Positions 2,161-56,831 of a stretch of 64,000 bases of DNA are shown in pieces. The DNA is taken from assembly GCA_011884725.1 (NCBI GenBank), contig GCA_011884725.1_3919.1; one strand, written 5' to 3'. Numbering within the stretch: position 1 is the stretch's first letter; every line of letters starts with the position of its first letter. This DNA comes from a phage. The notes below the pieces were generated by a model. The model was not told the origin of the DNA. It was given only the letters and a program-made list of their open reading frames with translations, and did no database searches. The position numbers and the translations under genes were made by a program.

Positions 2161-2486
2161 TGACTGGTATCACTGCAATCATTGCCATTTTCGCGCTCTA
2201 TAAGGCATATAAAGCCTATAATCTAGCAAATAAGGCAATCACACAACAGGTTAGTAATAGCCTTGTAATGAGCTTTCTAGAGCGGTTGAGCGATGAACAA
2301 TTAAAGCGGTTAGAAATGAGCTTCAGATTCAGGGCGAGAACTTATCAAATCAGCGACATTTTCAAAGATGATTTTCAATTAGTCGATGATTATAATTCTC
2401 TGATAAATGCTTTAAATATTAGTGACTTAAAAGACTATCATACTGTAATTGTTCAAGAGTTGAGCAAACGAAAACAAAACTGTTGA
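2154..2486 (+). CDS. hypothetical membrane protein
   Basis: 110-aa ORF, hydrophobic N-terminus (MLMTGITAIIAIFALY), start overlaps previous stop. Confidence 0.6.
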   Translation: MLMTGITAIIAIFALYKAYKAYNLANKAITQQVSNSLVMSFLERLSDEQLKRLEMSFRFRARTYQISDIFKDDFQLVDDYNSLINALNISDLKDYHTVIVQELSKRKQNC

Positions 2487-2511
2487 CACTGATTTTTAGA
2501 TAGATTAAATT
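2483..2511 (+). promoter_or_regulatory. sigma70-like promoter
   Basis: TTGACA (2483-2488), 17-nt spacer, TAAATT; identical sequence recurs at 3347-3375. Confidence 0.55.
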
Positions 2512-2515
2512 ACAC

Positions 2516-2575
2516 ATCAACGGGGAGGGAATGACCTTCCCCACTAAGTAAAGTCCTTAAACTAGGAGATTCAAA
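2516..2575 (+). repeat. leader module A copy 2
   Basis: Same 5' hairpin (2522-2542) and RBS as copy 1. Confidence 0.7.
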
Positions 2576-2848
2576 ATGTATACTACTAACAACGGTCGCA
2601 CTTTAAATGTCACTCTACGTCACTATGTCGACGGTGTGATGCACTTTGAGGATTTACAGGCTGAGCAACATATCTTAAATTGGCAAGTCGCAGGACTCCA
2701 AAAAACTGCTACCGGATACGGCAAAAAGATTCCAACTAGCTGGAAAGTTCACTATGAAGGCCGTTTGCGCAGAATTTATCAGGATGTATGTAACAATAGC
2801 ACATCAAGTTACATCATAGTAAAAGGTAAAAAACTGCATTTAGTATAA
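2576..2848 (+). CDS. hypothetical early protein
   Basis: 90-aa ORF behind module A. Confidence 0.7.
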   Translation: MYTTNNGRTLNVTLRHYVDGVMHFEDLQAEQHILNWQVAGLQKTATGYGKKIPTSWKVHYEGRLRRIYQDVCNNSTSSYIIVKGKKLHLV

Positions 2849-2849
2849 A

Positions 2850-2933
2850 GTACTTTACAGGGGGCTTATTAGTCTGTACAGTAAGCCCCAGATAAAGAGC
2901 TTTACCACTCAATCCTAAATTGGAGATTCTAAA
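2850..2933 (+). repeat. leader module B copy 3
   Basis: Hairpin about 2861-2889 plus conserved RBS region. Confidence 0.7.
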
Positions 2934-3338
2934 ATGACTATTAATAATCGTGAGTTGTCAATCTTAAAAGCACGTTTAACCGTTAATCGAATCAATGTTA
3001 TTACATCATCAGCACCGGATGAAACATTGCACAACATTATCGGAAAGATTCAAAGCGTTATCTTAGACGTTGAAAACGTAAAAAACTCATTGGCTGACGT
3101 TGCAGCAGGTATCACGCTAGACGGTGCACAATATGAAATGGCCGACATGTTAGGCAAATCTAAGGTAATGAATAAAGAGTTAGACTTGAAAATGTTTAGA
3201 TTTGCCGTGAAAGTGTGGCTATCTGTTGAGTATGATGCTAATTTTGCAATCGCTGATTTCTTTGCCACTTGGTTACAACGTAATTTGGCAAATCATGACT
3301 TTCGTGACATCTGCGACGCAATTTATGCAGAACTCTAA
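2934..3338 (+). CDS. hypothetical early protein
   Basis: 134-aa ORF behind module B. Confidence 0.7.
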   Translation: MTINNRELSILKARLTVNRINVITSSAPDETLHNIIGKIQSVILDVENVKNSLADVAAGITLDGAQYEMADMLGKSKVMNKELDLKMFRFAVKVWLSVEYDANFAIADFFATWLQRNLANHDFRDICDAIYAEL

Positions 3339-3346
3339 AAATTTTA

Positions 3347-3375
3347 TTGACACTGATTTTTAGATAGATTAAATT
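3347..3375 (+). promoter_or_regulatory. sigma70-like promoter (duplicate of 2483-2511)
   Basis: TTGACACTGATTTTTAGATAGATTAAATT. Confidence 0.55.
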
Positions 3376-3377
3376 AC

Positions 3378-3439
3378 ACATCAACGGGGAGGGAATGACC
3401 TTCCCCACTAAGTAAAGTCCTTAAACTAGGAGATTCAAA
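3378..3439 (+). repeat. leader module A copy 3
   Basis: Hairpin 3385-3405 plus RBS. Confidence 0.7.
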
Positions 3440-3637
3440 ATGGCTATTATCAACGGTTTAACCATTGAAACCACGCACATCAAAGACATTAAAGTTGGTG
3501 ATGTAGTTCTTTCCCACGGCGTAGAAAAAACAGTCACTGCAAAGGGTATCAAAGATGATTCTTTCATGGGTAGAACTCTCTTCGGTGATTCTTATTGCTT
3601 AGGTTATCTTGCAGTTTTAAAAGTTGTCAAAAATTAA
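3440..3637 (+). CDS. hypothetical early protein
   Basis: 65-aa ORF behind module A. Confidence 0.65.
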   Translation: MAIINGLTIETTHIKDIKVGDVVLSHGVEKTVTAKGIKDDSFMGRTLFGDSYCLGYLAVLKVVKN

Positions 3638-3639
3638 CT

Positions 3640-3730
3640 GATAAAGTACTTTACAAGGGGTTTATAGTTCGATAAAGTAAGCCCCAGATAAAGAGCTTTA
3701 CCACTAAATCCTTAAACTAGGAGATTCAAA
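3640..3730 (+). repeat. leader module B copy 4
   Basis: Hairpin GGGGTTTA..TAAGCCCC (3657-3685); a C-to-T change gives a G.U pair, consistent with an RNA stem. Confidence 0.7.
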
Positions 3731-4273
3731 ATGAAATGCTTTCACGGTACTACTCAAGAAAACTTTATCAACCTGATTAATAACGGTGATAAACCATCAG
3801 GTGTATGGAATTGTTCGGATATGGACGGCAATTTTTACGTGTACCCAGAAAATAAACTCTATGGTGATGATGAGGAAGAGATAGCATCGGAAGGTATCCA
3901 GCAAGCTCTAGGAAATGCCACTATCACGGCAGCTTTTCAGATGAAAACTCAAAATATTGTTATCTTAGAACTTGACATTCCAGAGGATGAGCTAAATGAT
4001 GATTATTCTTGTGATAACATGTCAAATATAGCAAGCTTTACAGAGTACTTTGATGTAAATTGGATTAAAAAGGTCTATACAACAGAGTTCAACGCTATGT
4101 ATTCACCTTTTTGTCTCCCTTCACTGGATAACCCAAATTTAAATTATCTTGATGAAACATTGGAGCTACTTGCTAAAAGTATCCAACAATCCGACAGTAT
4201 TCAGGTTTTTTGTGACATCATGGATACACTGACAGAAAACATTGTAGAGAGTGATTTAAAGGTCTTTTTCTAA
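3731..4273 (+). CDS. hypothetical early protein
   Basis: 180-aa ORF with conserved RBS. Confidence 0.7.
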   Translation: MKCFHGTTQENFINLINNGDKPSGVWNCSDMDGNFYVYPENKLYGDDEEEIASEGIQQALGNATITAAFQMKTQNIVILELDIPEDELNDDYSCDNMSNIASFTEYFDVNWIKKVYTTEFNAMYSPFCLPSLDNPNLNYLDETLELLAKSIQQSDSIQVFCDIMDTLTENIVESDLKVFF

Positions 4274-4305
4274 AAACCTATACATTCACCTTATAAACAC
4301 TGATT

Positions 4306-4326
4306 AACCCCTTACAGGGGCTTTTA
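4306..4326 (+). terminator. possible intrinsic terminator
   Basis: CCCCT-TAC-AGGGG stem followed by CTTTT. Confidence 0.4.
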
Positions 4327-4339
4327 GAGGGCTTAAATC

Positions 4340-4573
4340 ATGCTTACAACCATTTATCTCATCCTTTCTATCTGTAGCGGTCATTCATGTGACTTTAAAG
4401 GGCTTGAAGAGTTTACAGGAAGTAAAGAAAATGCTATTCAGGTTTGCCAGATAGCAAGACAAGACTATCCCGCCAGTGATGATATACAATGCTACTTTAA
4501 GACAGAAGATGAAGAAGGAATCTATTTCGACAGTGTTGATGGTCAATATGAAATTATCATTGAAAAAGACTAG
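4340..4573 (+). CDS. hypothetical protein
   Basis: 77-aa ORF; RBS GAGGG upstream. Confidence 0.6.
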   Translation: MLTTIYLILSICSGHSCDFKGLEEFTGSKENAIQVCQIARQDYPASDDIQCYFKTEDEEGIYFDSVDGQYEIIIEKD

Positions 4574-4603
4574 ACAAGCCTGATAAAAGTCTGTAAATTA
4601 CAC

Positions 4604-4663
4604 ATCAACGGGGAGGGAATGACCTTCCCCACTAAATAAAGTCCTAAACTGGAGATTCTAAAA
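4604..4663 (+). repeat. leader module A copy 4
   Basis: Hairpin 4610-4630 plus RBS; preceded by TAAATT -10 element. Confidence 0.7.
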
Positions 4664-5005
4664 ATGGCTTATGTAACCGTAATTACTGATAAAGAGAATT
4701 CATCTTGGTCAACTCAGGTTAGTGACAAGATGTCACCTATGCAGTGCCTAAAATACTTTGAGCAGTGGAATAAAGGCGAGGATGTAAGCCCATTTCAAGT
4801 GATGCAGGTTATCCATGTAGATAACGAAGGGAATAAAACGGTTTTAAATAGTGAGTACTACGCAAGCCGTTTTGAAACTAGAAGTAAAACAATGAAGCTT
4901 TTACGTGAATCCGGTTATGCCCATATCGCCGCGCTAATCTGGGATGACCTGCTAAAAAGTCAGCGTATCAGCTATGTAAAACCTGAAAAAATATTCATCA
5001 GTTAA
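4664..5005 (+). CDS. hypothetical early protein
   Basis: 113-aa ORF behind module A. Confidence 0.7.
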   Translation: MAYVTVITDKENSSWSTQVSDKMSPMQCLKYFEQWNKGEDVSPFQVMQVIHVDNEGNKTVLNSEYYASRFETRSKTMKLLRESGYAHIAALIWDDLLKSQRISYVKPEKIFIS

Positions 5006-5037
5006 TCAATAACTTATAAAAAACTTTTAAAAAAGTG

Positions 5038-5066
5038 TTGACAACACCCCTTGACAATAGTACATT
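5038..5066 (+). promoter_or_regulatory. promoter with tandem TTGACA boxes
   Basis: GTTGACAACACCCCTTGACAATAGTACATT: TTGACA at 5038 and 5051, TACATT 17 nt after the first. Confidence 0.45.
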
Positions 5067-5206
5067 TGTTCGAGGGGGTTTATCTAAAAGGGATTCACTT
5101 AAAAGATTCTTTATAGATAAACTTAAAAAATTGCTTGCAATCATCTTCCAAAAACTTTATAGTTTATCTCAAGCAATAATGCTTTCCTAAACTGGAGATT
5201 CAAAAA

Positions 5207-5737
5207 ATGAACAAGTTCAAAGCTATCAACTACATTCGCTCAAATAGTGTCATGTCTAAGCCTGTTAAGGATACCTACGAATTCCGTTGCAATGGTGAAC
5301 ACTTTGCTACCATCACCAAATCAAACAACGGGGCTTATTATATCCATCGTCGTAATGTTTCTACGGTTGTAGTTTCTAACTTTATGCAAGCTGTAGCGGA
5401 ACTCCTCCCGCTCTTCTTAGAAAAGTATGCCGTACAGTGTGAAAGTGTTCGTGAATGCACTAAAACAGTGTTAAACGGTTATCGTATGGCTTACGAGCGC
5501 TCTTTAAAGAATCTCAATAAATACTACAAAGCACCGGAAGGCACTTCATCCACAGCCTACGGGGTAGGGGGCTTCAATGTCAGCCTTTACGAAGTGGAAG
5601 AAATCGAGCTTTATGACCATCGCCCAAATGGTTACGCTAAGACACTGGGAGAGGGGTTAATGCTGAATATCAAGAACTTAGAAAAAACTTTAAGAGAAAT
5701 TGAAAAAGATATTGACGAGACAATCAAAAGTCTGTAA
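5207..5737 (+). CDS. hypothetical protein
   Basis: 176-aa ORF; RBS CTGGAGATTCAAAAAATG. Confidence 0.7.
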   Translation: MNKFKAINYIRSNSVMSKPVKDTYEFRCNGEHFATITKSNNGAYYIHRRNVSTVVVSNFMQAVAELLPLFLEKYAVQCESVRECTKTVLNGYRMAYERSLKNLNKYYKAPEGTSSTAYGVGGFNVSLYEVEEIELYDHRPNGYAKTLGEGLMLNIKNLEKTLREIEKDIDETIKSL

Positions 5738-5743
5738 ATTATC

Positions 5744-5802
5744 AATCAACGGGGAGGGAATAACCTTCCCCACTAAGTAAAGTCCTAAACTGGAGATTCA
5801 AA
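5744..5802 (+). repeat. leader module A copy 5
   Basis: Hairpin GGGGAGGGAATAACCTTCCCC (5751-5771) plus RBS. Confidence 0.7.
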
Positions 5803-6066
5803 ATGGAACACGTAGAACTGACCACACTCTTACAAATCGCAACCGACAAGGAAGACGTAGCATTATTTCACCGTATAGAGAGTGATTTGTTCAATGGTGA
5901 AATCATCAAAGAATCTTACGAAGTTGTCGGATTCAAAGATGGTAAAGCATTTGGCTTTTTTGACCTCGACAAAAGCAAAGCGGTTACAAAGTACGATGTT
6001 CTATCTTGTGAGATTCTTACAAAATACAACGAAAAAAGGCTTGCAACCTACGCCAACATGCAGTAA
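5803..6066 (+). CDS. hypothetical early protein
   Basis: 87-aa ORF behind module A. Confidence 0.7.
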   Translation: MEHVELTTLLQIATDKEDVALFHRIESDLFNGEIIKESYEVVGFKDGKAFGFFDLDKSKAVTKYDVLSCEILTKYNEKRLATYANMQ

Positions 6067-8612: not shown

Positions 8613-9077
8613 TTATCGTAAAACTTGATATTCTGGTACTGCGAATTTATTACTATTGTTCTTGATGAGGTCATCCTCTGAAACTAAAAATGTAATCCCA
8701 CATAAGTGTCTGTAACGACTATCATACTCGAATATCTTAAACAGATATTTACCATCATGATAAACCTGTTGCACTTCACCTTCTGCAACAGTCTCGCCTG
8801 TAATAAAATTTTTTAGTTTATACACATTACCAACTTTAGGTACTGTTTTCATCTCAGGCTCTTTTAGTGCTACACCTATTTTTGCATCACCGAGTAAATG
8901 AGAACTCTCAAAAGCTACGTGTTTCATATAAGCTTCTGAGCATTCCCAAATAAAACAATGTACAAGAACCTTAGCAGCATGTCTTGAGCAGTTCAACTTA
9001 TCACAAATTTCTGTGTACATCTCATCTTTAGTAGAATTGTCAAGCATTGCTCTTTGCACTACTTCTTTAATTTTCAT
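8613..9077 (-). CDS. hypothetical protein
   Basis: 154-aa ORF in a tight minus-strand operon. Confidence 0.65.
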   Translation of the reverse strand: MKIKEVVQRAMLDNSTKDEMYTEICDKLNCSRHAAKVLVHCFIWECSEAYMKHVAFESSHLLGDAKIGVALKEPEMKTVPKVGNVYKLKNFITGETVAEGEVQQVYHDGKYLFKIFEYDSRYRHLCGITFLVSEDDLIKNNSNKFAVPEYQVLR

Positions 9078-12704: not shown

Positions 12705-13169
12705 TTACTTTGGATATACACTGTCAAGATAAATGTCAGCTTCCATTCTACGTCTATTTTTCAAGCCGTTTGAAGTTACCTTCTTACCTTTGACTGTAAT
12801 CTTGTTCCACCACTGCATAGCTTCTGCACAACCTACCTTATTACCAGCATTGTGGCGCTTGATAAATGTAGAGTCCTGCATAGCTGTGATACCGATGTTA
12901 TATGTTTCACTTACAAGTGCATCGAACTCATTCTGAGAAGTTGGAGCCTTGATAGCTTTGTTCACTGCTGCAACAAACTTTTCAACATCTGCGAGAAGAT
13001 ACTGTTCAGCTTGTTCAGCCGTGATTTTCATACCCATCTTAACAGGTTTCCCGTCAATACGGATTGTACCATACCCGATTGTTGGGATTCCGGCAGAGTC
13101 TTCGTAAGCCTCTAACTCCAGACCTTCGAAGAACTTAATAGCGTCTAAACCTTTTCTTGAGAGTTGCAT
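12705..13169 (-). CDS. endolysin, T4-lysozyme-like (GH24) muramidase
   Basis: FFEGLELEAYEDSAGIPTIGYG matches the T4 lysozyme catalytic region [22 protein letters not shown] (Glu-Asp-Thr spacing). Confidence 0.85.
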   Translation of the reverse strand: MQLSRKGLDAIKFFEGLELEAYEDSAGIPTIGYGTIRIDGKPVKMGMKITAEQAEQYLLADVEKFVAAVNKAIKAPTSQNEFDALVSETYNIGITAMQDSTFIKRHNAGNKVGCAEAMQWWNKITVKGKKVTSNGLKNRRRMEADIYLDSVYPK

Positions 13170-25202: not shown

Positions 25203-26669
25203 ATGGCAGATATTACAGAAACACAAGAAAGCTTACCACCATTTAGAATGGGTGAAGTAGGTTCTTTGGGTCTGAAGGTTAAGAATGGAAGAATCTATGA
25301 AGAACCTCGTCAGGCACTAAGGTTCCCTGAAAGTATTAAAACTTTCCAATTAATGATGCGTGACCCTGCTGTAGCAGCATCTGTAAATATTATTAAGATG
25401 TTTGTCAGAAAAGTCAACTGGAGATTCGTACCTCCAAAGGGAAAAGAGCAAGACCCTAAAATGCTTGAAAGAGCAGACTTCTTTAATTCTTTAATGGATG
25501 ACATGGAGCATGATTGGGCAGATTTTATTAATTCTGTAATGTCATTCTGCACTTATGGGTTCTGTGTTAACGAGAAAGTTTATAAGAAGCGTCAGGGTAA
25601 AAAAGGAAAGTACCAGTCTAAATTTGATGATGGTCTAATTGGATGGGCTAAATTACCAATCAGAAACCAATCAACACTTGATAAGTGGTATTTTGACGAA
25701 GACTTTAGAAAAGTTACAGGTGTTAGGCAGAATCTGAGAAATGTTTCACATATTGCTGGAGCAATTAATCTCGGAGAAAGACCACTAACAAGAAAACTTC
25801 CACGAGCTAAATTCATGCTGTTCAAGTATGACGATGAATATGGAAATCCAGAAGGTCGTTCACCATTACTTAATGCTTATGTACCGTGGAAGTATAAAGT
25901 ACAGATTGAAGAGTATGAAGCTGTTGGTGTTTCAAGAGACTTGGTAGGTATGCCAAAGATTGGTTTACCACCAGATTATCTGGATGAAAATGCAGAACCT
26001 GAAAAGAAAGCTTTCGTACAATACTGCAAAACTGTTGTCAACGATATGATTGCTAATGACAGAGCAGGTTTAATCTGGCCTAGATATATCGACCCAGATA
26101 CTAAAGAGGATATTTTCGAGTTCTCATTAGTTTCTAGACAGGGTGCTAAAGCATACGATACAGGTTCTATTATTGACAGATACTCCAAGCAGATTATGAT
26201 GGCATTTATGTCAGATGTTCTTGCTATGGGTCAGTCAAAATACGGTTCATTCTCTCTTGCAGATTCTAAGACAAGCTTATTAGCGATGTCAGTAGATATT
26301 CTGCTGAAGCAAATTAAGAACGTAATTAACCGTGACTTAGTTGCACAGACTTATGCTCTTAATATGTGGGATGATGAAGAACATGTACAAATCACATATG
26401 ATGATATCGAAACTCCAGACCTTGAAGCAATTGGTTCTTATATTCAGAAGACTGTTGCAGTAGGTGCTTTGGAAGTTGACAAAGAACTATCTAACAAGCT
26501 TAGAGAGCATATTGGTCTTCCTCCTGCTGATGAGTCTCAGCCAGTATCTGAAAAGCTTTCTCCAAATAGCCAAAGCCGTTCAGGAGATGGTTATAAGACC
26601 GCTGGAGAAGGTACTGCAAAGACACCTTCAGCGAAAGACCCAAGCACAGCAAATAAGGCAAATAAATAA
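25203..26669 (+). CDS. portal protein
   Basis: About 489-aa ORF immediately after the large terminase, followed by protease and capsid genes; RBS AGGTGAG. Confidence 0.75.
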   Translation: MADITETQESLPPFRMGEVGSLGLKVKNGRIYEEPRQALRFPESIKTFQLMMRDPAVAASVNIIKMFVRKVNWRFVPPKGKEQDPKMLERADFFNSLMDDMEHDWADFINSVMSFCTYGFCVNEKVYKKRQGKKGKYQSKFDDGLIGWAKLPIRNQSTLDKWYFDEDFRKVTGVRQNLRNVSHIAGAINLGERPLTRKLPRAKFMLFKYDDEYGNPEGRSPLLNAYVPWKYKVQIEEYEAVGVSRDLVGMPKIGLPPDYLDENAEPEKKAFVQYCKTVVNDMIANDRAGLIWPRYIDPDTKEDIFEFSLVSRQGAKAYDTGSIIDRYSKQIMMAFMSDVLAMGQSKYGSFSLADSKTSLLAMSVDILLKQIKNVINRDLVAQTYALNMWDDEEHVQITYDDIETPDLEAIGSYIQKTVAVGALEVDKELSNKLREHIGLPPADESQPVSEKLSPNSQSRSGDGYKTAGEGTAKTPSAKDPSTANKANK

Positions 26670-42857: not shown

Positions 42858-44033
42858 ATGGCAGTAGGTGAAATTCAAATTAGTGCCTTGCCACAAGCGG
42901 CCTTACCAATTGATTTGAGTGATATCTTCCACCTTAAGCAAGGTGTTGAGGATAAAAGATGTACGCTTGAGCAGTTGTTAGCACCTCACGCATCTCTGAG
43001 GAATAATCCTCATGGTGTAACTAAATCACAAGTGGGTCTTGATAATGTTATTAACTCTCTTCAATTAGTTGCAGCTAATAACTTGTCAGACATCGTGAAT
43101 GTTGCTGAGGCAAGAGCAAATCTACAAATTATGTCGTCAGAGGAAGTGAATAACTTAATTCAGCAACATATTGACGACAAAAGTAACCCACACAATACAA
43201 CGAAAGCACAGGTTGGTTTAAGTAATGTTCAGAACTGGACAACATCTAATCTGTACAATGAAGATGCTGATAAGTATGCTACAGCGAGAGCAGTGAATAA
43301 CTTATACAAAGCTATCCAAGCATCATATCCAGTGGGGACTATTCATCTGTCTGTTAACTCTGCTAACCCATCCACTTACTTGCTTTGTGGTGGCACTTGG
43401 GAGTTAGTTTCTAAAGGTAGGGCACTAGTTGGTTATGATACAGATTCTAGACCTGTTGGTTCAATGTTTGGTTCTCAGACTGTAGCATTAACAAATAATA
43501 ATTTACCAGCACATACTCACTCTATCTACCTAACAGGTGGTGGTCATACACACTCTGCAAGTGTATCTATCTCTAGTTTTGATTATGGTTCAAAAAGCAC
43601 ATCAACTTTTGATTACGGTACAAAAACGACTAATAGTGCTGGTGCTCACACTCACACGTTTAGTGGCACAACAAGTAATGCTGGTAACCACAACCATAGA
43701 GTTCCTATGAGGGGTAATGATAGGGGTGGCACAAACGCTATTACTGCATCTGCTGATGCTGGTGTTGGTAATGCTATGTATACTGATTTAGCTGGTGCTC
43801 ACACCCATAGCTTCTCAGGTACAACTGCATCATCTGGTGCTCATAGTCATACTGTCGCAATTGGTGCTCACAGCCACACTGTTAATATTGGTTCGCACAG
43901 TCATACAGGCACTGTTACTGTTTCTAGCTCTGAGCATACACACTCAGGGACAACTGGTTCTGTTGGTGGTGGTCAAGCATTCAGTGTTGAGCAGCCATCT
44001 TTTGTAGTGTATGTGTGGCAGAGAACAGCTTAA
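42858..44033 (+). CDS. tail fibre protein with His-x-His repeats
   Basis: 391 aa; repeats GAHTHSFSGTT, GAHSHTVAIGAHSHTVNIGSHSHTG; C-terminus homologous to that of the next gene. Confidence 0.7.
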   Translation: MAVGEIQISALPQAALPIDLSDIFHLKQGVEDKRCTLEQLLAPHASLRNNPHGVTKSQVGLDNVINSLQLVAANNLSDIVNVAEARANLQIMSSEEVNNLIQQHIDDKSNPHNTTKAQVGLSNVQNWTTSNLYNEDADKYATARAVNNLYKAIQASYPVGTIHLSVNSANPSTYLLCGGTWELVSKGRALVGYDTDSRPVGSMFGSQTVALTNNNLPAHTHSIYLTGGGHTHSASVSISSFDYGSKSTSTFDYGTKTTNSAGAHTHTFSGTTSNAGNHNHRVPMRGNDRGGTNAITASADAGVGNAMYTDLAGAHTHSFSGTTASSGAHSHTVAIGAHSHTVNIGSHSHTGTVTVSSSEHTHSGTTGSVGGGQAFSVEQPSFVVYVWQRTA

Positions 44034-44043
44034 TTTCTTTACA

Positions 44044-44068
44044 GGGGCTTTATAGCCCCTTTTAAGAG
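44044..44068 (+). terminator. intrinsic terminator between fibre genes
   Basis: GGGGCTTTATAGCCCC followed by TTTTAAG. Confidence 0.55.
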
Positions 44069-44079
44069 GAAAACTTATA

Positions 44080-46452
44080 ATGGCAGATTACAAATTGAGT
44101 CAATTAAACTCAATCGACACAATTCGTTCAGAAGACCTATTGCACATCAGAGTTAAGAAAAGACCTGAAATGTTGGGTGATGAAGACCGTAGAATGACCT
44201 ATCAAGATTTCTTAGCTTCCTTCAAACTAGAAAGGTTTGTTCAGATTGCTGGGAGTACTATGATTGGGGATTTAGGTATTGTCAAGTTACTTTACGGTGG
44301 TAAGACGGTATTTGACCCAACAGGCTCTTCTGAGGTTACTATTGGGGATGTTTTAAAGACTTTTAAAATTAACGCAAATGGTCTTAAACTAACTATTGCA
44401 GATGCTTCAAGGTCAGCAACTGTTTATCATACTCTGAATAAGCCAAGTCCTAATGAGCTTGGTATGAGGACTAATGAAGAGAATGATGCAAGATACGCAA
44501 GACTTGCTATCACAAACACATTCTCTGGAACTCAAAATATTCAAGGTGATGCTAACTTACTTCGCCTTAGAAACCAAAATGCAAATAATGCACAATATAT
44601 CGAAGGTGTAAACCTAGATGGTTCGGCTAGATGGTGGGTTGGTATTGGTAGTAATGGCTCTGACGAAGTAAAGCTGTACAATAACAAATACAACTCAGCC
44701 TTGACTGTTGCAAGTAATGTCTCTGTTAATAAGTCTTTAGCAATCACTGGTCAAGTTCAACCTTCAGATTTCTCTAACTTAGATGCTAGATACTTCACTC
44801 AGACAGTTGCTAATCAGAGATTTGCACAGTTAGCTGCTAATAATAATTTCACGGGCACTAACACGTTTAGTAGAAATCTAACTATCATTAGTGACAGTGC
44901 TGCTTTAAGGTTGAAAAATGCAACAGCTAGCTCACTATTCATTCAGGGTGTTGACTCTCAGAACACTAACAGGTGGTATGTAGGGAACGGGGATAACACA
45001 GCCTCTGTGCTGCTACACAACTATGTACACGGTTCAAATATCAGACTTGATAATGGCTATATCTCAGTCAACCAGAACTTCAGAATCACTGGTCAAGTTC
45101 AACCTTCGGATTGGACTAATATTGATTCTAGATATATTCCGGCAGCAACATTAAGTACTATTGCAAGAACTAATGCACAAAACACTTTTAACGGTGTACA
45201 GAAAGTTGTTACGGATAATGAAGCTCTAATTTTGAAAAACTCTACTCAGAACAGACCATTGTATATCCGTGGTGTGGACACTGCTAATGTGTCAAGGTGG
45301 TGGGTAGGTGTTGGTGGGGCAGATACTAATGATGTTACCCTAAATAACAGTTTTTCTGGCACTCAGTTAGTTTTAGGTAACTCATCTGCAAGCATCAATA
45401 AGACACTATCCCTGACTGGACAGATTCAGCCCTCTGATTTCTCTAACTTAGATGCTAGATATTATACGCAATCTACAGCAAACTCTAGGTATATGCTTGC
45501 TTACTCTTCTGGCACTGGTACAGAGGTAGGTGATGGTGATGGTATTGCTTGGAATGCTAAAACTGGTCTGTATAATGTTACAGGTAAATCTGGTAGTTCA
45601 ACACAGCTAGTCTACCATATGTATCAGGGTACAAGTTCTACACCATCTGCTCAATTAAAATTTGACTATAGAAATAGGGGTTGTTGGTATAGGTCAGCAA
45701 GAGATGGGTATGGGTTTGAGAATACTTGGGCTAAAATCTATACAGACCAAGATAAACCAACCCCTTCAGATATTGGTGCATACACTAAAGCAGAAACTGA
45801 CCAGAAGATTGCAAAAGCAATTAGTGACTCTACAGACCTGAATAAAATCTATCCAGTAGGTATTGTGACGTGGTTTAACAGTAATGTCAACCCTAACACA
45901 GCACTTCCTGGGTTAACTTGGACGTACCTGAATAATGGTGTTGGTAGAACTATTAGAATTGCAGCAGCAAACGGTTCAGATGTTGCTACAACTGGTGGTT
46001 CAGACTCTGTAACGTTGTCTGTTGGTAACTTACCTTCACACACGCACAGCTTCTCTGCTACCACTTCATCATTTGATTATGGTACTAAGACTTCTAGCAC
46101 AACTGGTAACCACAACCACAACAGAGGTACTATGGAGATTACTGGTACAGTAGGTTACTTTAGAAGTGACTCTAGCAGCTTCTACACAGCAAGTGGTGCA
46201 TTCACACTTGGTAGCTCAACTGCTTCTAAGGGTTTTACTGGCTCTAACTTCACTAATGGTATCCCTGCTAACTTTAATGCGTCAAGAACTTGGTCTGGTG
46301 TAACGAATACAACAGGTAACCACAGCCACACTGTTGGTATTGGCGCTCACAGCCACACAGTTAGCGGTAACACAGGTGGTACTGGTTCTGGTTCAGCATT
46401 TAGTGTTACTAACCAGTTCTACAAGTTAATGGCTTGGGTAAGAACTGCTTAA
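44080..46452 (+). CDS. long tail fibre protein
   Basis: 790 aa; internal repeats (LTGQVQPSDFSNLDARY x3), C-terminal HxH block and ..SAFSV..W.RTA tail shared with 42858-44033. Confidence 0.75.
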   Translation: MADYKLSQLNSIDTIRSEDLLHIRVKKRPEMLGDEDRRMTYQDFLASFKLERFVQIAGSTMIGDLGIVKLLYGGKTVFDPTGSSEVTIGDVLKTFKINANGLKLTIADASRSATVYHTLNKPSPNELGMRTNEENDARYARLAITNTFSGTQNIQGDANLLRLRNQNANNAQYIEGVNLDGSARWWVGIGSNGSDEVKLYNNKYNSALTVASNVSVNKSLAITGQVQPSDFSNLDARYFTQTVANQRFAQLAANNNFTGTNTFSRNLTIISDSAALRLKNATASSLFIQGVDSQNTNRWYVGNGDNTASVLLHNYVHGSNIRLDNGYISVNQNFRITGQVQPSDWTNIDSRYIPAATLSTIARTNAQNTFNGVQKVVTDNEALILKNSTQNRPLYIRGVDTANVSRWWVGVGGADTNDVTLNNSFSGTQLVLGNSSASINKTLSLTGQIQPSDFSNLDARYYTQSTANSRYMLAYSSGTGTEVGDGDGIAWNAKTGLYNVTGKSGSSTQLVYHMYQGTSSTPSAQLKFDYRNRGCWYRSARDGYGFENTWAKIYTDQDKPTPSDIGAYTKAETDQKIAKAISDSTDLNKIYPVGIVTWFNSNVNPNTALPGLTWTYLNNGVGRTIRIAAANGSDVATTGGSDSVTLSVGNLPSHTHSFSATTSSFDYGTKTSSTTGNHNHNRGTMEITGTVGYFRSDSSSFYTASGAFTLGSSTASKGFTGSNFTNGIPANFNASRTWSGVTNTTGNHSHTVGIGAHSHTVSGNTGGTGSGSAFSVTNQFYKLMAWVRTA

Positions 46453-46531: not shown

Positions 46532-46729
46532 ATGCCTACAATCCTAGCAATTCTTCTAAAAAATCTAGGTAGCTTCTTCTGGAAACTCATTTTATCCCTT
46601 CTAAGTGAATACATGATTGAGAAAGTGTTCTTTAAGCTTGCAAGATACCTTGCGAGTAAAACAGACACACCTATTGATGATGAGTTCGTAGATAACTTAG
46701 AAAAAGCTTTTAAGGGGGAGAATAAATGA
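46532..46729 (+). CDS. hypothetical small membrane protein (holin-like?)
   Basis: 65 aa; hydrophobic N-terminus (ILAILLKNLGSFFWKLILSLL), charged C-terminus. Confidence 0.45.
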   Translation: MPTILAILLKNLGSFFWKLILSLLSEYMIEKVFFKLARYLASKTDTPIDDEFVDNLEKAFKGENK

Positions 46730-47097
46730 AGTGGCTAGAGGATGCTTTTAAAAACAATATTGGTGCAATTGTAGTTGGTATTTTTAGTGTTATTGGAATG
46801 TATACCACTATGCAAGTTTCAAGTGGTAAGCAAGAAGTATCTGTCACAACAAAGTTACAGCAGCTAGATAATTATTCCAAAAGTAACTATTCAGCTATTC
46901 GTGATTTACAGTCTGACATGAGACTGATTCAGCTAGGGATGGAGAACCAGAAAGTCCAGTTAGAGAATGTTAAGGGTGAAAACGCAAAACTTACCAAAAC
47001 CCTTGATAAATTCTCTGACAGTGTGAACAATCTGGCTCAATCAGTATCAGCCTTGCAAGCTATTACTGAAAAGAACACAAAGAATACTGAAAAATAA
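46726..47097 (+). CDS. membrane-anchored coiled-coil protein
   Basis: 123 aa; TM segment IGAIVVGIFSVIGMY then helical Q/L/N-rich region. Confidence 0.5.
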   Translation: MKWLEDAFKNNIGAIVVGIFSVIGMYTTMQVSSGKQEVSVTTKLQQLDNYSKSNYSAIRDLQSDMRLIQLGMENQKVQLENVKGENAKLTKTLDKFSDSVNNLAQSVSALQAITEKNTKNTEK

Positions 47098-47103
47098 AAT
47101 TTA

Positions 47104-47135
47104 AGGCTCCCGTAAAAAGGAGCCTTTTTTGTTTT
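47104..47135. terminator. bidirectional intrinsic terminator
   Basis: GGCTCC-CGTAAAAA-GGAGCC flanked by A-run upstream and TTTTTTGTTTTT downstream, between convergent genes. Confidence 0.65.
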
Positions 47136-50234: not shown

Positions 50235-50618
50235 TCAAATACCTGTGCAGCTTCTGTTTTCTAAGAAATACTCAACACCATACATAGCTTTTTGCATCAA
50301 ATCTTCTTTAAACTGGATACGGTGGTTGAGCATCTCCTGCACATCAATATCGTCATGGTGTTTCTCTTTAATGTTTGCAGATTGCAGGAAATACTCTGCA
50401 AGAACGCGATACTGGTAGTCAGTTACCTTATCAGTCATCTCTGTTAAAGACTCTTCAGAGATTGGTTTAAGTAGCTCGCCTTTAGATAAAGCAACACCTT
50501 TTACAATCTGGCAAGTGTCTTCTGGAACACCTGATAAGTCCACATTTGGAAGTTCTGTTGCATTGACTGGTAAATTCATTGCCATAACCATTGCAGCAGC
50601 TAATAAAATCTTTTTCAT
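50235..50618 (-). CDS. secreted/periplasmic hypothetical protein
   Basis: Signal peptide MKKILLAAAMVMAMNLPVNA. Confidence 0.6.
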   Translation of the reverse strand: MKKILLAAAMVMAMNLPVNATELPNVDLSGVPEDTCQIVKGVALSKGELLKPISEESLTEMTDKVTDYQYRVLAEYFLQSANIKEKHHDDIDVQEMLNHRIQFKEDLMQKAMYGVEYFLENRSCTGI

Positions 50619-50899: not shown

Positions 50900-51046
50900 T
50901 TATATAAAAGTCCTGATAACTATATGTGTTACAAAACAGAAGATTGTGAACAAGACACCCATTGCAAAGGATGTGTTCAAAAGTTTACTTGTTATGTAAG
51001 ACAACACAAAGACAACTAATGCAAACAGAATGATTGTGCTTAACAT
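50900..51046 (-). CDS. candidate small hydrophobic protein (unlisted ORF)
   Basis: 49 aa (MLSTIILFALVVFVLSYITSKLLNTSFAMGVLFTIFCFVTHIVIRTFI), begins 4 nt after the ligase stop; weak RBS. Confidence 0.3.
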   Translation of the reverse strand: MLSTIILFALVVFVLSYITSKLLNTSFAMGVLFTIFCFVTHIVIRTFI

Positions 51047-51049: not shown

Positions 51050-52153
51050 TTACTCATAATCCCTAATAACTAGCCCTACAGGAAACTGTAAAGAACCCTT
51101 ACGAGTCATCTTCTGGAACTGAACAGTTAAAGGTTTCCCGATAAACTCTTCAGGATGTTCAGCAAGATACTGTTTCTTCTCATGAGTAGTCTTCCATGAG
51201 ACATCTACAAAGACGTTAGGAAGAGTCTCTACAACGAACTTGCCATGACCACGTTTATCGGTCTTTACACCAGTCACTTTAAACTCTTCAGTGTGCATCT
51301 TCTTATGCTTAATCAAGAAGTATGAACGGTGACAACACTCATAGAAGGAGTCTTCAGAGATTGAACGGTACATTGCACCTTCAAACTTAGCTTCAACCCA
51401 CTTATCATGAGCTTCATCAAACTCTTCCCAAGAATTTACACGACGAGACTTAACAGGAACAACTTTACAGCCGTCTCTGAAGTCATTCAATGGTGAAGTC
51501 TCAATAATATCTCTACGCTCAGGCCACGTCTTAGTACTGTCACAGATATCATACCAGTAAAACTTGAGTAGATGTCGGTCAGGATTGTCTTCATTTTTAA
51601 TCATGGAGACAATATCTTCTAAGTCCAACCCATGAGCATAGATTTCACCATCAAATTCATCAACATCTTTATGGAGCCTCAACATTGCCATAATGTCAGG
51701 TATTAGCTCAGTAGGAATTTTATAAATAGTGTTCTCACGAGAATATGCTGTAAATACACTGCCAATACTTAAGTGTCTTGAAATTCTACAACGGACACCA
51801 TCAAGTTTTGGTTGAGCATCAGCAGGGAACTTCAGATACTTTGCATGGCTAACCTTTGCAGCATCATGAGCAAGCTGTACACCTACCTTCTCAGTATTCT
51901 GTGCAGACTCTTTTGTGTAAGCATACCCTTTACGGTCAACTTGCTTTTTATACTTAGCAGCAACTTCAAAGAGAGCTTGCTGTTCAGCATTACGCTCATT
52001 CTTTTTACCGATGTTTTTAGGTTCTGCTGTATACTCTTCAAACATCATCTTGCCATTTTCTTTACCATAGGTTGTGATAACTTTGTCACCTACAGCAACA
52101 CATGACCAGACGTTGAAGGAACCATCTTTATTTTGTTTGTACAGAATTGTCAT
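51050..52153 (-). CDS. ATP-dependent DNA ligase
   Basis: Adenylation motif I KLDGVR (AQPKLDGVRCRI); ATG at 52153 with RBS AGAGG preferred over 52189. Confidence 0.8.
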   Translation of the reverse strand: MTILYKQNKDGSFNVWSCVAVGDKVITTYGKENGKMMFEEYTAEPKNIGKKNERNAEQQALFEVAAKYKKQVDRKGYAYTKESAQNTEKVGVQLAHDAAKVSHAKYLKFPADAQPKLDGVRCRISRHLSIGSVFTAYSRENTIYKIPTELIPDIMAMLRLHKDVDEFDGEIYAHGLDLEDIVSMIKNEDNPDRHLLKFYWYDICDSTKTWPERRDIIETSPLNDFRDGCKVVPVKSRRVNSWEEFDEAHDKWVEAKFEGAMYRSISEDSFYECCHRSYFLIKHKKMHTEEFKVTGVKTDKRGHGKFVVETLPNVFVDVSWKTTHEKKQYLAEHPEEFIGKPLTVQFQKMTRKGSLQFPVGLVIRDYE

Positions 52154-52358
52154 TTTTAACCTCTGAGTGATACCAAGTGTTGCAAGCATTACATGCGTAA
52201 AGCTCTAAGTCGTTTTTATCTGGTTTATGGAAACAGTTTGACCCACAACGACACCGGAATAACTTACCATCAACACGAAGAATGAATGTTTCAAGCTCAC
52301 CCTCTTCTGTAAGGACGGCGTTATTATATTTGTTATCTTTATCCATTTGCACCCTCAC
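52128..52358 (-). CDS. zinc-ribbon protein
   Basis: 76 aa with CRCGSNC ... CNAC. Confidence 0.55.
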   Translation of the reverse strand: MRVQMDKDNKYNNAVLTEEGELETFILRVDGKLFRCRCGSNCFHKPDKNDLELYACNACNTWYHSEVKNDNSVQTK

Positions 52359-52506
52359 CTGTGTCAGATTTCATATAAGACCTGTCACTAAACCTTTTAA
52401 TGAAATGTACAACGCATTTCGGTGTATCTTTTGCATCTTTGATGTGCAACCTTTCGAAACTACGCACTGTGAAGGTTGCACCTGTCATTGTTTGTTTAGA
52501 TTTCAT
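52350..52506 (-). CDS. candidate small protein (unlisted ORF)
   Basis: 52 aa; its ATG overlaps the upstream TGA (ATGA junction). Confidence 0.35.
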
Positions 52507-52760
52507 TTTCTCTTACCACCAATTTCTACGTCAATAACTTGAACATCGCCAGCAACATCAAACTTATGAATGATGCTTTCCACAGTGTAAGTCCAACCCT
52601 CAATGCGAACCAACTCACCTTCTCGTGGGACGATTGGATTACGTTGAGCTACGGTTGTAGTGGAGTGAACAACATCATAACAATAGATGTAGTTTACTAA
52701 GACTTCCATCGAGAAAACCTCACTCAATAACCGTAGTGTGTGATTGTCCATTTTTGCCAT
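52503..52760 (-). CDS. hypothetical protein
   Basis: 85-aa ORF. Confidence 0.55.
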   Translation of the reverse strand: MAKMDNHTLRLLSEVFSMEVLVNYIYCYDVVHSTTTVAQRNPIVPREGELVRIEGWTYTVESIIHKFDVAGDVQVIDVEIGGKRK

Positions 52761-52977
52761 AGTTGTAAGATGTTGTTGTTTGAGAATTTGGACATCTTAC
52801 AACAACAATATCTCTGCTTATAGCATCACCATTGAGTTTGTAGATTTTGCAGTCTTGCATCTCTGGAGGGAGGCTGTAAGAAGCATCTTTGTTTTCATAA
52901 GATGGGTTGCAGCCAGCCAGAAAAATTACTCCAAGTGCAACCATTGCTTTCACACAACTCTTAACCTTATTGTTCAC
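52720..52977 (-). CDS. lipoprotein
   Basis: Signal peptide with lipobox (MNNKVKSCVKAMVALGVIFLAGC); small mature domain with two more Cys; GTG start. Confidence 0.6.
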   Translation of the reverse strand: MNNKVKSCVKAMVALGVIFLAGCNPSYENKDASYSLPPEMQDCKIYKLNGDAISRDIVVVRCPNSQTTTSYNYGKNGQSHTTVIE

Positions 52978-53113
52978 GATAGTCTACCTCTCTGTATGTT
53001 TTTAAATAGTGAGTGATGAGTTCTGGTAATTCACTACGTTTAACGTTTGAACGAAGAAGTGTCCAATCAAAACCTTTACCAACCCTTCCCCAGAGACTGT
53101 ACATTTTCTTCAT
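52967..53113 (-). CDS. candidate small protein (unlisted ORF)
   Basis: 48 aa (MKKMYSLWGRVGKGFDW..); RBS GGAG 5-8 nt upstream; ATGA overlap with stop of 53110-53343. Confidence 0.4.
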   Translation of the reverse strand: MKKMYSLWGRVGKGFDWTLLRSNVKRSELPELITHYLKTYREVDYREQ

Positions 53114-53585: not shown

Positions 53586-54089
53586 TCAACTTAGTTTTGC
53601 AAACTCTCCGTGGAGTTTTACAGCAGCTTCACAGTATGCTTTATGGGCTTCTTCAGGGGTGTCAAATAAACCAAGTGATGTCCTTTTACCTCTGCATGTT
53701 ATAGCTGCCCTCCACTTATTACAGTCTTTAAAGTAATGTACACCCTTGTAACCTGATTTATTAGTCGTCTGCTTTATTCTATTTTGTGCATTTCCGTATT
53801 TATCAGTCTCCCTAAGATTAGAAATGTGATTATTACTTCTGTTACCATCAATGTGGTCTATCATCTTAGTAGGTTTGTAACCATGTTCGAACCACCAAAC
53901 GAGGTGATGAATTTTTATTACGACATCTTTGAATTTAAGTACTTTGTAACCGTAAGCATCAGCACCTCCTGCAATCTGCCCAGCTTTAGCTTGTCTATTC
54001 CTGTCATACTTGTTGTAGAAGACCCCTTTGTCGGGGTCGTAAATAAAATTATCCTTGTAATCTTGAAGTGTTAGTGTACGGCGTACCAT
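53586..54089 (-). CDS. HNH homing endonuclease with AP2 DNA-binding domain
   Basis: HNH core HHLVWWFEHGYKPTKMIDHIDGNRSNNHISNLR; AP2-like SGYKGVHYFKDCNKWRAAI..LGLFDTPEEAHKAY; start overlaps the DNA polymerase 3' end. Confidence 0.8.
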   Translation of the reverse strand: MVRRTLTLQDYKDNFIYDPDKGVFYNKYDRNRQAKAGQIAGGADAYGYKVLKFKDVVIKIHHLVWWFEHGYKPTKMIDHIDGNRSNNHISNLRETDKYGNAQNRIKQTTNKSGYKGVHYFKDCNKWRAAITCRGKRTSLGLFDTPEEAHKAYCEAAVKLHGEFAKLS

Positions 54090-56770
54090 GTCTTACCTAC
54101 CTTACCAGTGCCTGTAACAAGCGTCTTACTCTTTAATCCAAGATTTTTTGATGCTTGACCATACATTCTATCAATAATTTCCTTAACATCAGGTACATCT
54201 TTGGTTGGAACCTCTAAAGAGACCTCATCGTGGTAACTACAGACCCACCTAGCACCAATAGCGGGCTTCCTACCATTTAGAACTGTAAGCTTGCGCTCTG
54301 TTAACTCTCTGTTAGCCAAGTTAATACCCTCATTCTGCACCTGCGCCTCACTGCCCATAAGTGTGTAATTCAATAACTTATGTGGAGATTTACACCATAA
54401 CCACGCTCCAGCAACTTTGATATAACCACCTTTGGCAATTGCAGAAGTTTTTCCGAAAACCTCTTCAAGTGCTTTCTTAGTTGCTTTGAAGTCTTCCTCT
54501 AACCTGTCCAGAAGCTTTTTAATCTTAGGCAGACGCACAAAGTAAGTTTGTTTAGTCAATGCACCTTCTTCCGTAGATGATGCCTTGATAGTTTTTGCAA
54601 ACTTCTCGTCTCCGGCTCCAAATAACAGGGCGTAGATACCATTCTTAGCCTTCTTACGGCCTTTTGTAATCTCGTGAAGAAGTTCCTCATCCTGTGTCTC
54701 CCTACAACGAACAATATCTTCTTCCTTGTTCAAACCAAAGTAAATACTGTTCAGTGTATGTGCATCAGTACCTGTGTAGACTTCATAGAGGTCATTCTCA
54801 GCATCATAACGCAGATACTTGTCAGTTTCTGGGTTAAGATACTTGTCAAGATGCTTGCAGTAGTATCTACCATCATCTTGCTTAGTGAACTCAACTGACT
54901 CTTTACCCTCAGTTACCGCTTTAGTGAAGTCTTCATCACCCATAAAGTTACAAAGAAGAACTAGCTGGGCTGAGTTTTGGTCTACGGAGATGATATCTGT
55001 ACCATCTTCACAAGTCCACACCTCCCTCATAGGTGCTCCATAGACAGCAGCACCAGACGGCACGTTTACAATACCATATTGTGTCATACGTCCAGTTGAA
55101 GTACCAAACACCATTGCACCAGCACTAAGGCGACCATCAGGACGAATCTGGTTCAACCAACCTTTTTCATCATCCTTTGAGTTCTCAATGGTTCTGCGTC
55201 GGTGCATCAAAGTATAGTATTTAGCAATCTTCTGTCCAAGCTCACCTTCAATCGTATCATAAGAAGATTCAGTAAGTTTTGGTGAAGTACGGATTAAGCA
55301 AGGTTCAAGCAAATCCGTGTACTTCTTCACAGACCAGTTATGTTCGATGTACTGGACACCTTCGTGTTCAACATAACTCAACCCACACCGTTCAACCATC
55401 TCCTGCCACTTAGGATGCTTTGTAATCATCTTTTTGTTGTCTTTGAAACGACAAACTTTGACAGGGCGACCGTCTGAATCTTTCTTGTAGTTCCAGTCAT
55501 CTGGAATCCAACCAACTGATTTCAAGTAGTCTTTAACAACTGCTACCTGAGTCATACGAGAAACTTCAAACTCAATTGGTGTATATGGTGCATCAATCAA
55601 TCCTGTGTAGCGACTTGACTCAAGCTCAAAGTGGTTAACAACATGACTGTTATAGTACTTCACAGTTTTGACTGTTTTTACTGGCTTCCAGTCTTTGCAT
55701 TTCTTACCAATCTTTGCATTCAACTCATTGCAAATTGCACGAGCATCCTTCATTGCTACAAAGCCTTCCTTGTACTCTTCACCAGTTACAGAGTTGGTTG
55801 GTGTATAGCAATTTCTCTTTTCAATGTTAAAAATCTTTGTAGTTGGCTTACCAAATGGCTTGATTTCATAAGTCTGCATCTCACCATTACGCACCTGCTG
55901 ACGATACTTCGTCTTAGGGTACTTGGTAATTCTTTTCAGTCCATCTGCATGACCAAATGCTTCAACATACTCATTCCAAGCTTTTGCAAACTCTTCTCCA
56001 GTGACTTTACCTTTGGTCTTAATAGTTGGAGGAAGATGTGGTTCAACTTCTGAAGCAAGCTCATTAGTCAACTTGTCAAGTTCCTTTACATGGAACTCCA
56101 TAAGCTCTTTATCAGCTTTCCAACCATTGATAGCTTGTTGACTCATCCAGAAAGATGTTTCTTTAGCTCGCATATAGGTTTCATAAGTGTCTATGCCACA
56201 CTTCTTTAGCTTGAGATACTCATTATCCAGTGCGCGTTTAGTTTTGGCGTTAATACGGATATCTTCCACAACACGAGTGAAGATTTCTGCATTCCACACA
56301 CCCCAATGTTCAATCTCTGGTTTACGGACACCAACACGAGCACCCCATGCAGCCAAGCCATGAGCACCTTTATAGCCTTTTGGAGTTGGTCTATCCATCC
56401 ACTGAACACGAGACTGGATAAGAGAATCCTGAAAGAAATTACTCCACGGCTTACACTTTGGATTATCAAAGTTCCATAAATCAGGTGCAATGTGATTGAA
56501 AACCCACCAGTCATAACCCAGACCATTATGGATGCAAAGTCGTTTTGCCTTTAACGCAAACTCAACACCTTCACGTAAACCACCCTTAATGTACTTAGTG
56601 TACTTGTGACCGAGGATAGGCTCATCTGTAAAGACCCATACAGGTGGCTCTTCATCGTCAGATTTATAATCTGCGAAAGCCATTACGTGAACTTTAGTGA
56701 ACTCAAGGAGTAAACCATCAGTTTCTGTATCACCAACTAAATGTAAGTTTTTAAAATCTACGTTTTCCAT
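54071..56770 (-). CDS. DNA polymerase, family A, with 3'-5' exonuclease domain
   Basis: Exo I DTETDGL; Pol motifs D..SAQLVLL, RKKAKNGIYALLFG, YHDE; ATG at 56770 with RBS GAGGGAG preferred over 56800. Confidence 0.92.
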   Translation of the reverse strand: MENVDFKNLHLVGDTETDGLLLEFTKVHVMAFADYKSDDEEPPVWVFTDEPILGHKYTKYIKGGLREGVEFALKAKRLCIHNGLGYDWWVFNHIAPDLWNFDNPKCKPWSNFFQDSLIQSRVQWMDRPTPKGYKGAHGLAAWGARVGVRKPEIEHWGVWNAEIFTRVVEDIRINAKTKRALDNEYLKLKKCGIDTYETYMRAKETSFWMSQQAINGWKADKELMEFHVKELDKLTNELASEVEPHLPPTIKTKGKVTGEEFAKAWNEYVEAFGHADGLKRITKYPKTKYRQQVRNGEMQTYEIKPFGKPTTKIFNIEKRNCYTPTNSVTGEEYKEGFVAMKDARAICNELNAKIGKKCKDWKPVKTVKTVKYYNSHVVNHFELESSRYTGLIDAPYTPIEFEVSRMTQVAVVKDYLKSVGWIPDDWNYKKDSDGRPVKVCRFKDNKKMITKHPKWQEMVERCGLSYVEHEGVQYIEHNWSVKKYTDLLEPCLIRTSPKLTESSYDTIEGELGQKIAKYYTLMHRRRTIENSKDDEKGWLNQIRPDGRLSAGAMVFGTSTGRMTQYGIVNVPSGAAVYGAPMREVWTCEDGTDIISVDQNSAQLVLLCNFMGDEDFTKAVTEGKESVEFTKQDDGRYYCKHLDKYLNPETDKYLRYDAENDLYEVYTGTDAHTLNSIYFGLNKEEDIVRCRETQDEELLHEITKGRKKAKNGIYALLFGAGDEKFAKTIKASSTEEGALTKQTYFVRLPKIKKLLDRLEEDFKATKKALEEVFGKTSAIAKGGYIKVAGAWLWCKSPHKLLNYTLMGSEAQVQNEGINLANRELTERKLTVLNGRKPAIGARWVCSYHDEVSLEVPTKDVPDVKEIIDRMYGQASKNLGLKSKTLVTGTGKVGKTWYAVH

Positions 56771-56831
56771 TTTTACTCCCTCTAAAATCATTAACCTCAT
56801 ACATTACTGCAAAAAATTATAAAAAGCAAGT

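Follow-up and report, generated by a model that had tools for sequence, protein, structure and literature searches.

A predicted lipoprotein of the uncharacterised PHROG 902/DUF4884 family in a Felix O1-like phage is very probably not a spanin

Few phage proteins are known to have their site of action in the periplasm. Small lipoproteins belong to these few, and the characterised ones, Llp, Cor and Rz1, have each revealed a distinct envelope mechanism. The Llp protein of phage T5 has a mature part of 61 residues with a disulfide, and the genes of the characterised exclusion lipoproteins adjoin the receptor-binding gene (PMC9586334). The gene considered here, located at 52720..52977 on the minus strand of a 64-kb stretch of phage DNA (the window), had been described in a preliminary analysis as encoding a small lipoprotein that could be either a receptor blocker or a spanin component. 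Comparison with these systems and with the protein family to which the gene belongs indicates, with high confidence, that the product is a lipoprotein of the PHROG 902 family and not a spanin. The small-lipoprotein part of the preliminary description is well supported by these results, and the two functions that it proposed are not.

The open reading frame encodes 85 amino acids, with a GTG start codon at 52977-52975 and a TGA stop codon at 52722-52720, and the translation of 52720..52977 (minus strand) reads MNNKVKSCVKAMVALGVIFLAGC followed by NPSYENKDASYSLPPEMQDCKIYKLNGDAISRDIVVVRCPNSQTTTSYNYGKNGQSHTTVIE. The orthologue in phage Felix O1, ORF91 (NP_944949.1, annotated as “hypothetical protein”), is 97.6% identical. 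A search with a 5-kb query around the gene identifies 262 phage records with 80-95% identity, nearly all of them from Felix O1 relatives. Pairwise dN/dS values against Felix O1, momo and Michonne fall between 0.02 and 0.15, indicative of strong purifying selection. This is a genuine gene of a Felix O1-like myovirus (Felixounavirus, Ounavirinae) that GenBank already lists with a hypothetical product, and its family is catalogued but functionally uncharacterised; a search of the literature found no paper on the PHROG 902/DUF4884 family or on any Felixounavirus lipoprotein. Annotation of the gene varies among related sequences. In phage momo (MN850580.1; positions 2171-2422 of the extracted locus L002), the ORF is intact, with 81% identity, and has no corresponding annotated CDS, the momo_125 CDS overlapping it in part only. 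In some metagenomic gene calls (P0002 and P0003; 124 aa), the lipoprotein ORF is extended upstream.

The N-terminal portion of the protein has the features of a bacterial lipoprotein precursor. The predicted signal peptide (residues 1-22, 52912..52977, minus strand) consists of an n-region, MNNKVKSCVK, with three lysines (K4, K6 and K10) and an uncharged h-region, AMVALGVIF, and its hydropathy reaches a maximum of 1.82 over 19 residues (residues 5-23). It ends in the lipobox L20-A21-G22-C23 (52909..52920, minus strand), in which C23 is predicted to be lipidated and to form the N-terminus after cleavage. The rule applied here calls for [LVI][ASTVI][GAS]C with the cysteine at position 15-35, a positively charged n-region and an uncharged h-region; the product combines all of these elements and fits the PROSITE PS51257-type rule. 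The mature part (C23-E85, residues 23-85; 52723..52911, minus strand) comprises 63 residues with the lipidated cysteine, that is, 62 residues after C23, and contains two further cysteines, Cys43 (codon 52849..52851, minus strand) and Cys62 (codon 52792..52794, minus strand). The lipobox and the mature part of about 62 amino acids with two additional cysteines, as given in the preliminary description, are therefore both borne out. The +2 rule for lipoprotein sorting is established in Enterobacteria and is modulated by the residue at position +3; under this rule, the asparagine at +2 (N24) predicts sorting of the protein to the outer membrane.

A profile search shows that the protein belongs to PHROG 902, a family of unannotated role, with a match that covers residues 2-83 (E 4e-18). 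The precomputed Pfam label is PF16225 (DUF4884), which bears no mark of weakness for the query and is also carried by nearly all homologues; a local Pfam-A hmmscan does not return PF16225 for the query or for 52 members of the family, even at E<=1-10. Searches of Pfam, NCBIfam, PADLOC and PDB with the single protein return either nothing or matches to signal peptides only. The Pfam scan of the 52 members yields only LPAM_1, in nine of them, and noise that includes weak matches to Lysis_col. These weak matches are attributed to the signal peptide, and the relationship with colicin lysis proteins was rejected, the mature part of the present protein being twice as long and folded. Likewise, a Bor/Iss-like serum-resistance lipoprotein and a TraT-like surface exclusion protein were rejected, given that the Pfam scans of the query and the 52 members produce no profile match to either.

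The family is large and is found in phages that have little in common. Among 1.84 billion representatives, a search with the family profile identifies 1,241 clusters (at 50% identity) with E<=1e-3, of which 684 have E<=1e-10, and nearly all of these proteins are 75-110 aa long. A tblastn search detects the family protein in 592 phage records from at least five lineages, which include Felixounavirus and Mooglevirus (Ounavirinae), Vequintavirinae (CB7, where the protein is annotated as “putative lipoprotein”, and ABPH49), jumbo phages of Asteriusvirus (Ecwhy_1/121Q type), the Pseudomonas Straboviridae phage PspYZU05, and approximately 300 Vibrio Demerecviridae (T5-like). The BFVD collection adds T4-like phages of Aeromonas, as well as other members that are named “Lipoprotein” there. 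The hosts of the phages with this family include Enterobacteria, Vibrio, Aeromonas, Pseudomonas and Acinetobacter. An 86-aa DUF4884 protein also appears in the published listing for phage Henu8 (49.9 kb; best matches to coliphage and Shigella-phage proteins), and BT_3183 from Bacteroides is labelled DUF4884 in the literature as well. In cellular genomes, a strict scan for DNA encoding VVRCPNSxTTT across 185,579 species genomes gives a single bacterial match, in Hylemonella gracilis. Since only this one bacterial genome was identified among so many species, the family looks phage-borne. The H. gracilis ATCC 19624 protein (NZ_AEGR01000062.1; 4568..4846 of the extracted locus L014) is a 92-aa member with the lipobox SLAGC-D that is encoded on a betaproteobacterial chromosome contig.

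Alignments of 52 and 146 sequences reveal a compact set of conserved positions. Three cysteines (C23, C43 and C62) never vary, and P37, P63 and K75 are near-invariant. The characteristic motifs are LPxE(L/M), DCK(I/V)Y, (R/Y)CPN(S/A)xTxT and GK; Cys62 and the adjacent P63 lie within the RCPN motif of the present protein. The lipobox is present in 204 of the 211 members that were fetched, and 175 of these 204 contain exactly three cysteines in the mature part. The +2 position is far more variable: aspartate occupies it in 56 of the 204 lipobox-containing members, glutamate in 40, serine in 31, threonine in 25 and asparagine in 19. Aspartate is found in many members from enterobacterial phages, for which it predicts retention in the inner membrane, so that the anchoring membrane would vary within the family if the +2 rule holds. 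Many members possess C-terminal tails beyond the core domain (e.g., P0052, P0078, P0084, P0147, P0155, P0163 and P0201), which are characterised by repeats of (V/I)(D/N)G(V/E)TY or, alternatively, by a KLTxEExKxLGL-type motif; no such tail is present in the Felixounavirus protein.

The AlphaFold2 model of the mature domain shows a short linker followed by an all-beta domain with five strands (pLDDT 71.1, pTM 0.49; pLDDT 64.8 for the full-length model). A Foldseek search of PDB with the full-length model finds no match with E<1. In the model, the base of the beta2-beta3 hairpin contains Cys43, with Cys62 opposite, and these two invariant cysteines would probably form an intramolecular disulfide.

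Analysis of the genomic context places the gene in a leftward unit in which DNA polymerase (54071..56800) is followed by an HNH endonuclease, five small ORFs and DNA ligase (51050..52189), and which continues towards frd and td and is closed by a hairpin terminator at 47103-47126. Within this unit, the 48-aa ORF immediately upstream (52967..53113) overlaps the lipoprotein gene by 11 nt. A Shine-Dalgarno-like AGAGAGG (52987..52993, minus strand; read from the sequence), 9 nt 5' of the GTG codon, falls within the 3' end of this ORF, which suggests translational coupling of the two genes. The downstream gene (52503..52709) most likely starts at ATG 52709, given that the resulting 68-aa form matches phrog_4427 end to end. 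In the Felix O1 annotation, the small genes ORF88-94 similarly share 4 nt with the next gene or lie close to it, and the run of small coupled genes noted in the preliminary description is evident in both sequences. In the published analysis of the Felix O1 genome, genes 96-80 are regarded as one transcription unit that starts between genes 96 and 97; expression peaks at 25 min for ORFs 88, 89, 90, 93 and 96 and at 5 min for ORF95, the RT-PCR table does not include ORF91, and Gp91 is absent from the virion proteins (PMC3185647). The expression timing of ORF91 would thus be that indicated by the neighbouring genes of the unit.

Several other elements of the window deserve mention. An HNH/AP2 homing endonuclease (53586..54089, minus strand) separates the DNA polymerase from the small genes and is missing in a metagenomic relative (L013), an absence that fits a mobile insertion. 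The leftward unit also contains a 127-aa ORF (50235..50618, minus strand; phrog_4332) with a Sec-type cleavable signal peptide, MKKILLAAAMVMAMNLPVNA followed by TE, and no lipobox, so that its product is a second predicted exported protein of this unit, and a 48-aa, very hydrophobic ORF (50900..51046, minus strand; MLSTIILFALVVFVLSYITSKLL...; phrog_22006) that probably encodes a small membrane protein. On the opposite side of the terminator, the ORF at 46726..47097 (plus strand) is syntenic with the “putative holin” of Michonne and matches only phrog_4038, a family of unannotated role; the hairpin at 47103-47126 that follows it is bidirectional and is shared with the converging td gene. Finally, two families of direct repeats of approximately 100 nt are located between small plus-strand ORFs at 924-5819, namely five copies of the 108-nt repeat D1 and four of the 103-nt repeat D2 (83-100% identity); Felix O1 likewise has a match to the D2 copies, at 8630-8722. 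These repeats look like repeated intergenic regulatory modules.

The homologues from other lineages (Vequintavirinae, Asteriusvirus, a Vibrio T5-like phage, PspYZU05 and ABPH49) are likewise encoded within runs of small genes of unannotated role. In the Vibrio T5-like phage, these are small genes between those for a replication-origin-binding protein, a helicase and a ligase. An all-against-all comparison of the flanking ORFs detects no neighbour common to different lineages except the lipoprotein itself, which implies that the gene moves and presumably works alone. In every lineage examined, the family gene has small early or replication genes around it, and neither tail-fibre nor spanin genes were found beside it.

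This solitary context bears directly on the possibility that the protein is a spanin, i.e., an Rz1-like o-spanin subunit or a unimolecular spanin, with a function in fusing or disrupting the outer membrane when the cell is lysed. A lipobox with asparagine at +2, with the outer-membrane sorting that it predicts, is what would be expected of an o-spanin, and the window has no other plausible lipobox ORF: besides the gene itself, a six-frame scan of the 64 kb finds only two short minus-strand ORFs, 4385..4546 and 25310..25552, and a longer plus-strand ORF overlaps each of them. The remoteness of the gene from the endolysin, which the preliminary description stated correctly (the endolysin gene, at 12705..13169, is about 40 kb away; phrog_7, E 1.5e-56), is no argument against a spanin because the lysis genes of Ounavirinae are dispersed, as exemplified by this endolysin and the putative holin at 46726..47097. 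However, there is no adjacent, overlapping or embedded i-spanin gene. The products of the flanking ORFs, 52967..53113 and 52503..52709, lack a membrane segment, with maximum 19-residue hydropathy values of -0.14 and 0.87, respectively, compared to 1.75 for the Rz protein of Felix O1. The only hydrophobic stretch of the lipoprotein is its signal peptide, and the C-terminal 19 residues have a hydropathy of -1.1; without a C-terminal membrane segment, the protein is not a u-spanin similar to T1 gp11. The mature part is a predicted five-strand beta domain with 4 prolines in 63 residues, as opposed to the short, proline-rich and largely unstructured mature part of an o-spanin.

Furthermore, the genus already possesses a canonical overlapping pair of Rz-like and o-spanin genes next to pnk/rIIB, represented by ORF6/ORF7 in Felix O1 and gp090/gp091 in Michonne. 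ORF6 of Felix O1 is annotated as an Rz-like spanin and has an N-terminal membrane segment, and the overlapping ORF7 has the lipobox LLITMSGC; the Michonne counterparts are annotated as “Rz-like spanin” and “o-spanin”. The corresponding region falls outside the window. Profile comparisons of the lipoprotein with Felix O1 ORF7 and lambda Rz1 reveal no detectable homology, the gene is solitary across lineages, and the outer-membrane signal is not a family-wide feature, given the aspartate at +2 in 56 of 204 members. Taken together, these observations make a role as a lysis spanin extremely improbable, and this suggestion of the preliminary description does not survive the comparison.

The relationship with Llp and Cor requires more discussion. 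Proteins of this type are lipoproteins of the inner leaflet of the outer membrane that bind the periplasmic face of a protein receptor and thereby block adsorption of the same or competing phages, or prevent inactivation of the progeny on cell debris. The present protein resembles them in being a small lipoprotein with asparagine at +2 and a probable intramolecular disulfide, encoded within a non-structural transcription unit, and an hhalign comparison of the full-length family profile with Llp gives a probability of 86%. This score, however, comes from the signal peptide: when only the mature domains are aligned, the probability drops to 2%, and a profile search of PDB similarly encounters Llp in the signal peptide only (E 1.5). 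(The Llp query sequence agrees with the PDB entries 8a60 and 7qjf.) The tail-fibre genes (42858..46452, plus strand) are also 6 kb away from the gene, lie on the opposite strand and belong to a different transcription unit, and the Vibrio T5-like homologue lies among replication genes. Receptor blockers diverge along with their receptor, whereas the domain analysed here is conserved across phages with unrelated hosts and receptors. Aspartate at +2, present in 56 of 204 members, predicts retention in the inner membrane in Enterobacteria, and a tether in that membrane is a misfit with binding the periplasmic face of an outer-membrane receptor. Moreover, Felix O1 is reported to target LPS and not a protein receptor (PMC8594841), which makes the premise of a protein receptor doubtful. 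The size, the lipobox and the probable disulfide that make the protein Llp-like thus stand, but the mature-domain homology, the linkage to the receptor-binding gene and the nature of the receptor all speak against the receptor-blocker proposal. A receptor plug in the style of T5 is probably not what this protein is, and we consider an Llp/Cor-type function quite unlikely overall. Superinfection exclusion of another kind is possible.

The explanation that we favour, with confidence somewhat short of even, is that the protein is a stand-alone periplasmic effector that acts on a conserved component of the envelope. The precursor would be exported via Sec and receive its lipid at Cys23, and cleavage by signal peptidase II would yield a lipoprotein of 63 residues. 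In this protein, a linker of about 12 residues would tether the compact five-strand beta domain, probably clamped by the Cys43-Cys62 disulfide, to a membrane such that it faces the periplasm; for the protein of the window phage, asparagine at +2 predicts that this is the outer membrane. The gene would be transcribed with the replication unit from DNA polymerase to ligase, and not with the structural genes, and its product would act alone, without a phage-encoded partner. Given that the domain is kept in unrelated virulent phages and that the predicted anchoring membrane differs among them, the target would most likely be a conserved envelope component that is exposed to the periplasm and shared by Gram-negative hosts rather than one specific outer-membrane receptor; the same argument is also compatible with a protein receptor that is itself conserved. 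The purpose of such an effector would most likely be to protect or condition the envelope of the infected cell, for example, by excluding secondary phages after adsorption or by protecting against lysis from without. This functional part of the proposal is the more tentative one, and our confidence in it is well below even.

Two alternatives share much of this evidence. Under the first, the protein would be a periplasmic regulator of the phage's own lysis, either a tethered inhibitor of murein hydrolases or a lysis-timing factor that acts against premature damage to the wall. A periplasm-facing, membrane-tethered protein that is made before the late genes would be suited to such a task, and among the large virulent phages with a family member, several also have rIIA/rIIB loci for lysis inhibition, as seen in the records of Felix O1, Michonne and PspYZU05. 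Nevertheless, no likeness to known lysozyme inhibitors or antiholins is found in Pfam, NCBIfam or PDB, and in none of the six loci examined does an annotated endolysin or holin gene adjoin the family gene, so that regulation of lysis appears very unlikely. Under the second alternative, the protein would be a host-takeover effector that changes stress signalling, vesiculation, transport or the turnover of the wall, i.e., the normal physiology of the envelope, serving replication with no role in competition between phages. The conserved domain, the solitary gene in the early region and the variable anchoring are as compatible with this possibility as with the favoured explanation, and the chromosomal homologue in Hylemonella gracilis and the DUF4884 label of a Bacteroides protein are in its favour. 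On the other hand, the proposal is computationally indistinguishable from the favoured explanation, and the occurrence of the strict motif in one bacterial genome among 185,579 species makes the family look phage-borne. A host-takeover function is accordingly unlikely in our estimate, and the protective role is weakly preferred over one purely in host physiology.

As a gene already catalogued as hypothetical, the ORF of the window is unsurprising as a sequence, and its value is that of a testable lead into a functionally uncharacterised family with about 1,240 clusters, which evolves under purifying selection in virulent phages of at least five unrelated groups. Several of these groups, namely the Felix O1-like, rV5-like and T5-like phages, serve in biocontrol and therapy. 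If the family excludes other phages, this would matter for the design of phage cocktails, and a target that proves to be a conserved envelope machine would be of antibacterial interest.

Compared with the known systems, the window protein shares with the Rz1-type o-spanins (lambda Rz1, T4 PseT.2 and Felix O1 ORF7/Michonne gp091) the small size, the lipobox, cysteine in the mature part and the predicted sorting to the outer membrane. It differs from them in being the folded beta-domain product of a solitary gene, where the o-spanins have an extended, proline-rich mature part and an i-spanin partner. With T5 Llp and Cor of T1/phi80, it has in common a mature part of about 60 residues, a probable disulfide, a location within a non-structural unit and a predicted orientation towards the periplasm. 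However, the mature domains show no detectable homology and no match in fold was seen, the gene of the window is away from the receptor-binding gene, and the family often has a predicted anchor in the inner membrane. The closest relatives are the other members of PHROG 902/DUF4884, which possess the same lipobox, the same two further invariant cysteines and the same CPN motif; within this family, the window protein represents the Felixounavirus branch, with asparagine at +2, whereas many other branches have aspartate or glutamate. It is conceivable, although we consider it distinctly speculative, that the PHROG 902/DUF4884 proteins are pan-lineage, receptor-independent envelope effectors, each a periplasmic domain on a membrane tether, that bind one conserved Gram-negative envelope machine or the cell wall, and that they either block genome delivery by any later phage or neutralise a periplasmic response of the host. 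Such a mechanism would be distinct both from receptor jamming by Llp/Cor and from the action of T4 Imm/Sp.
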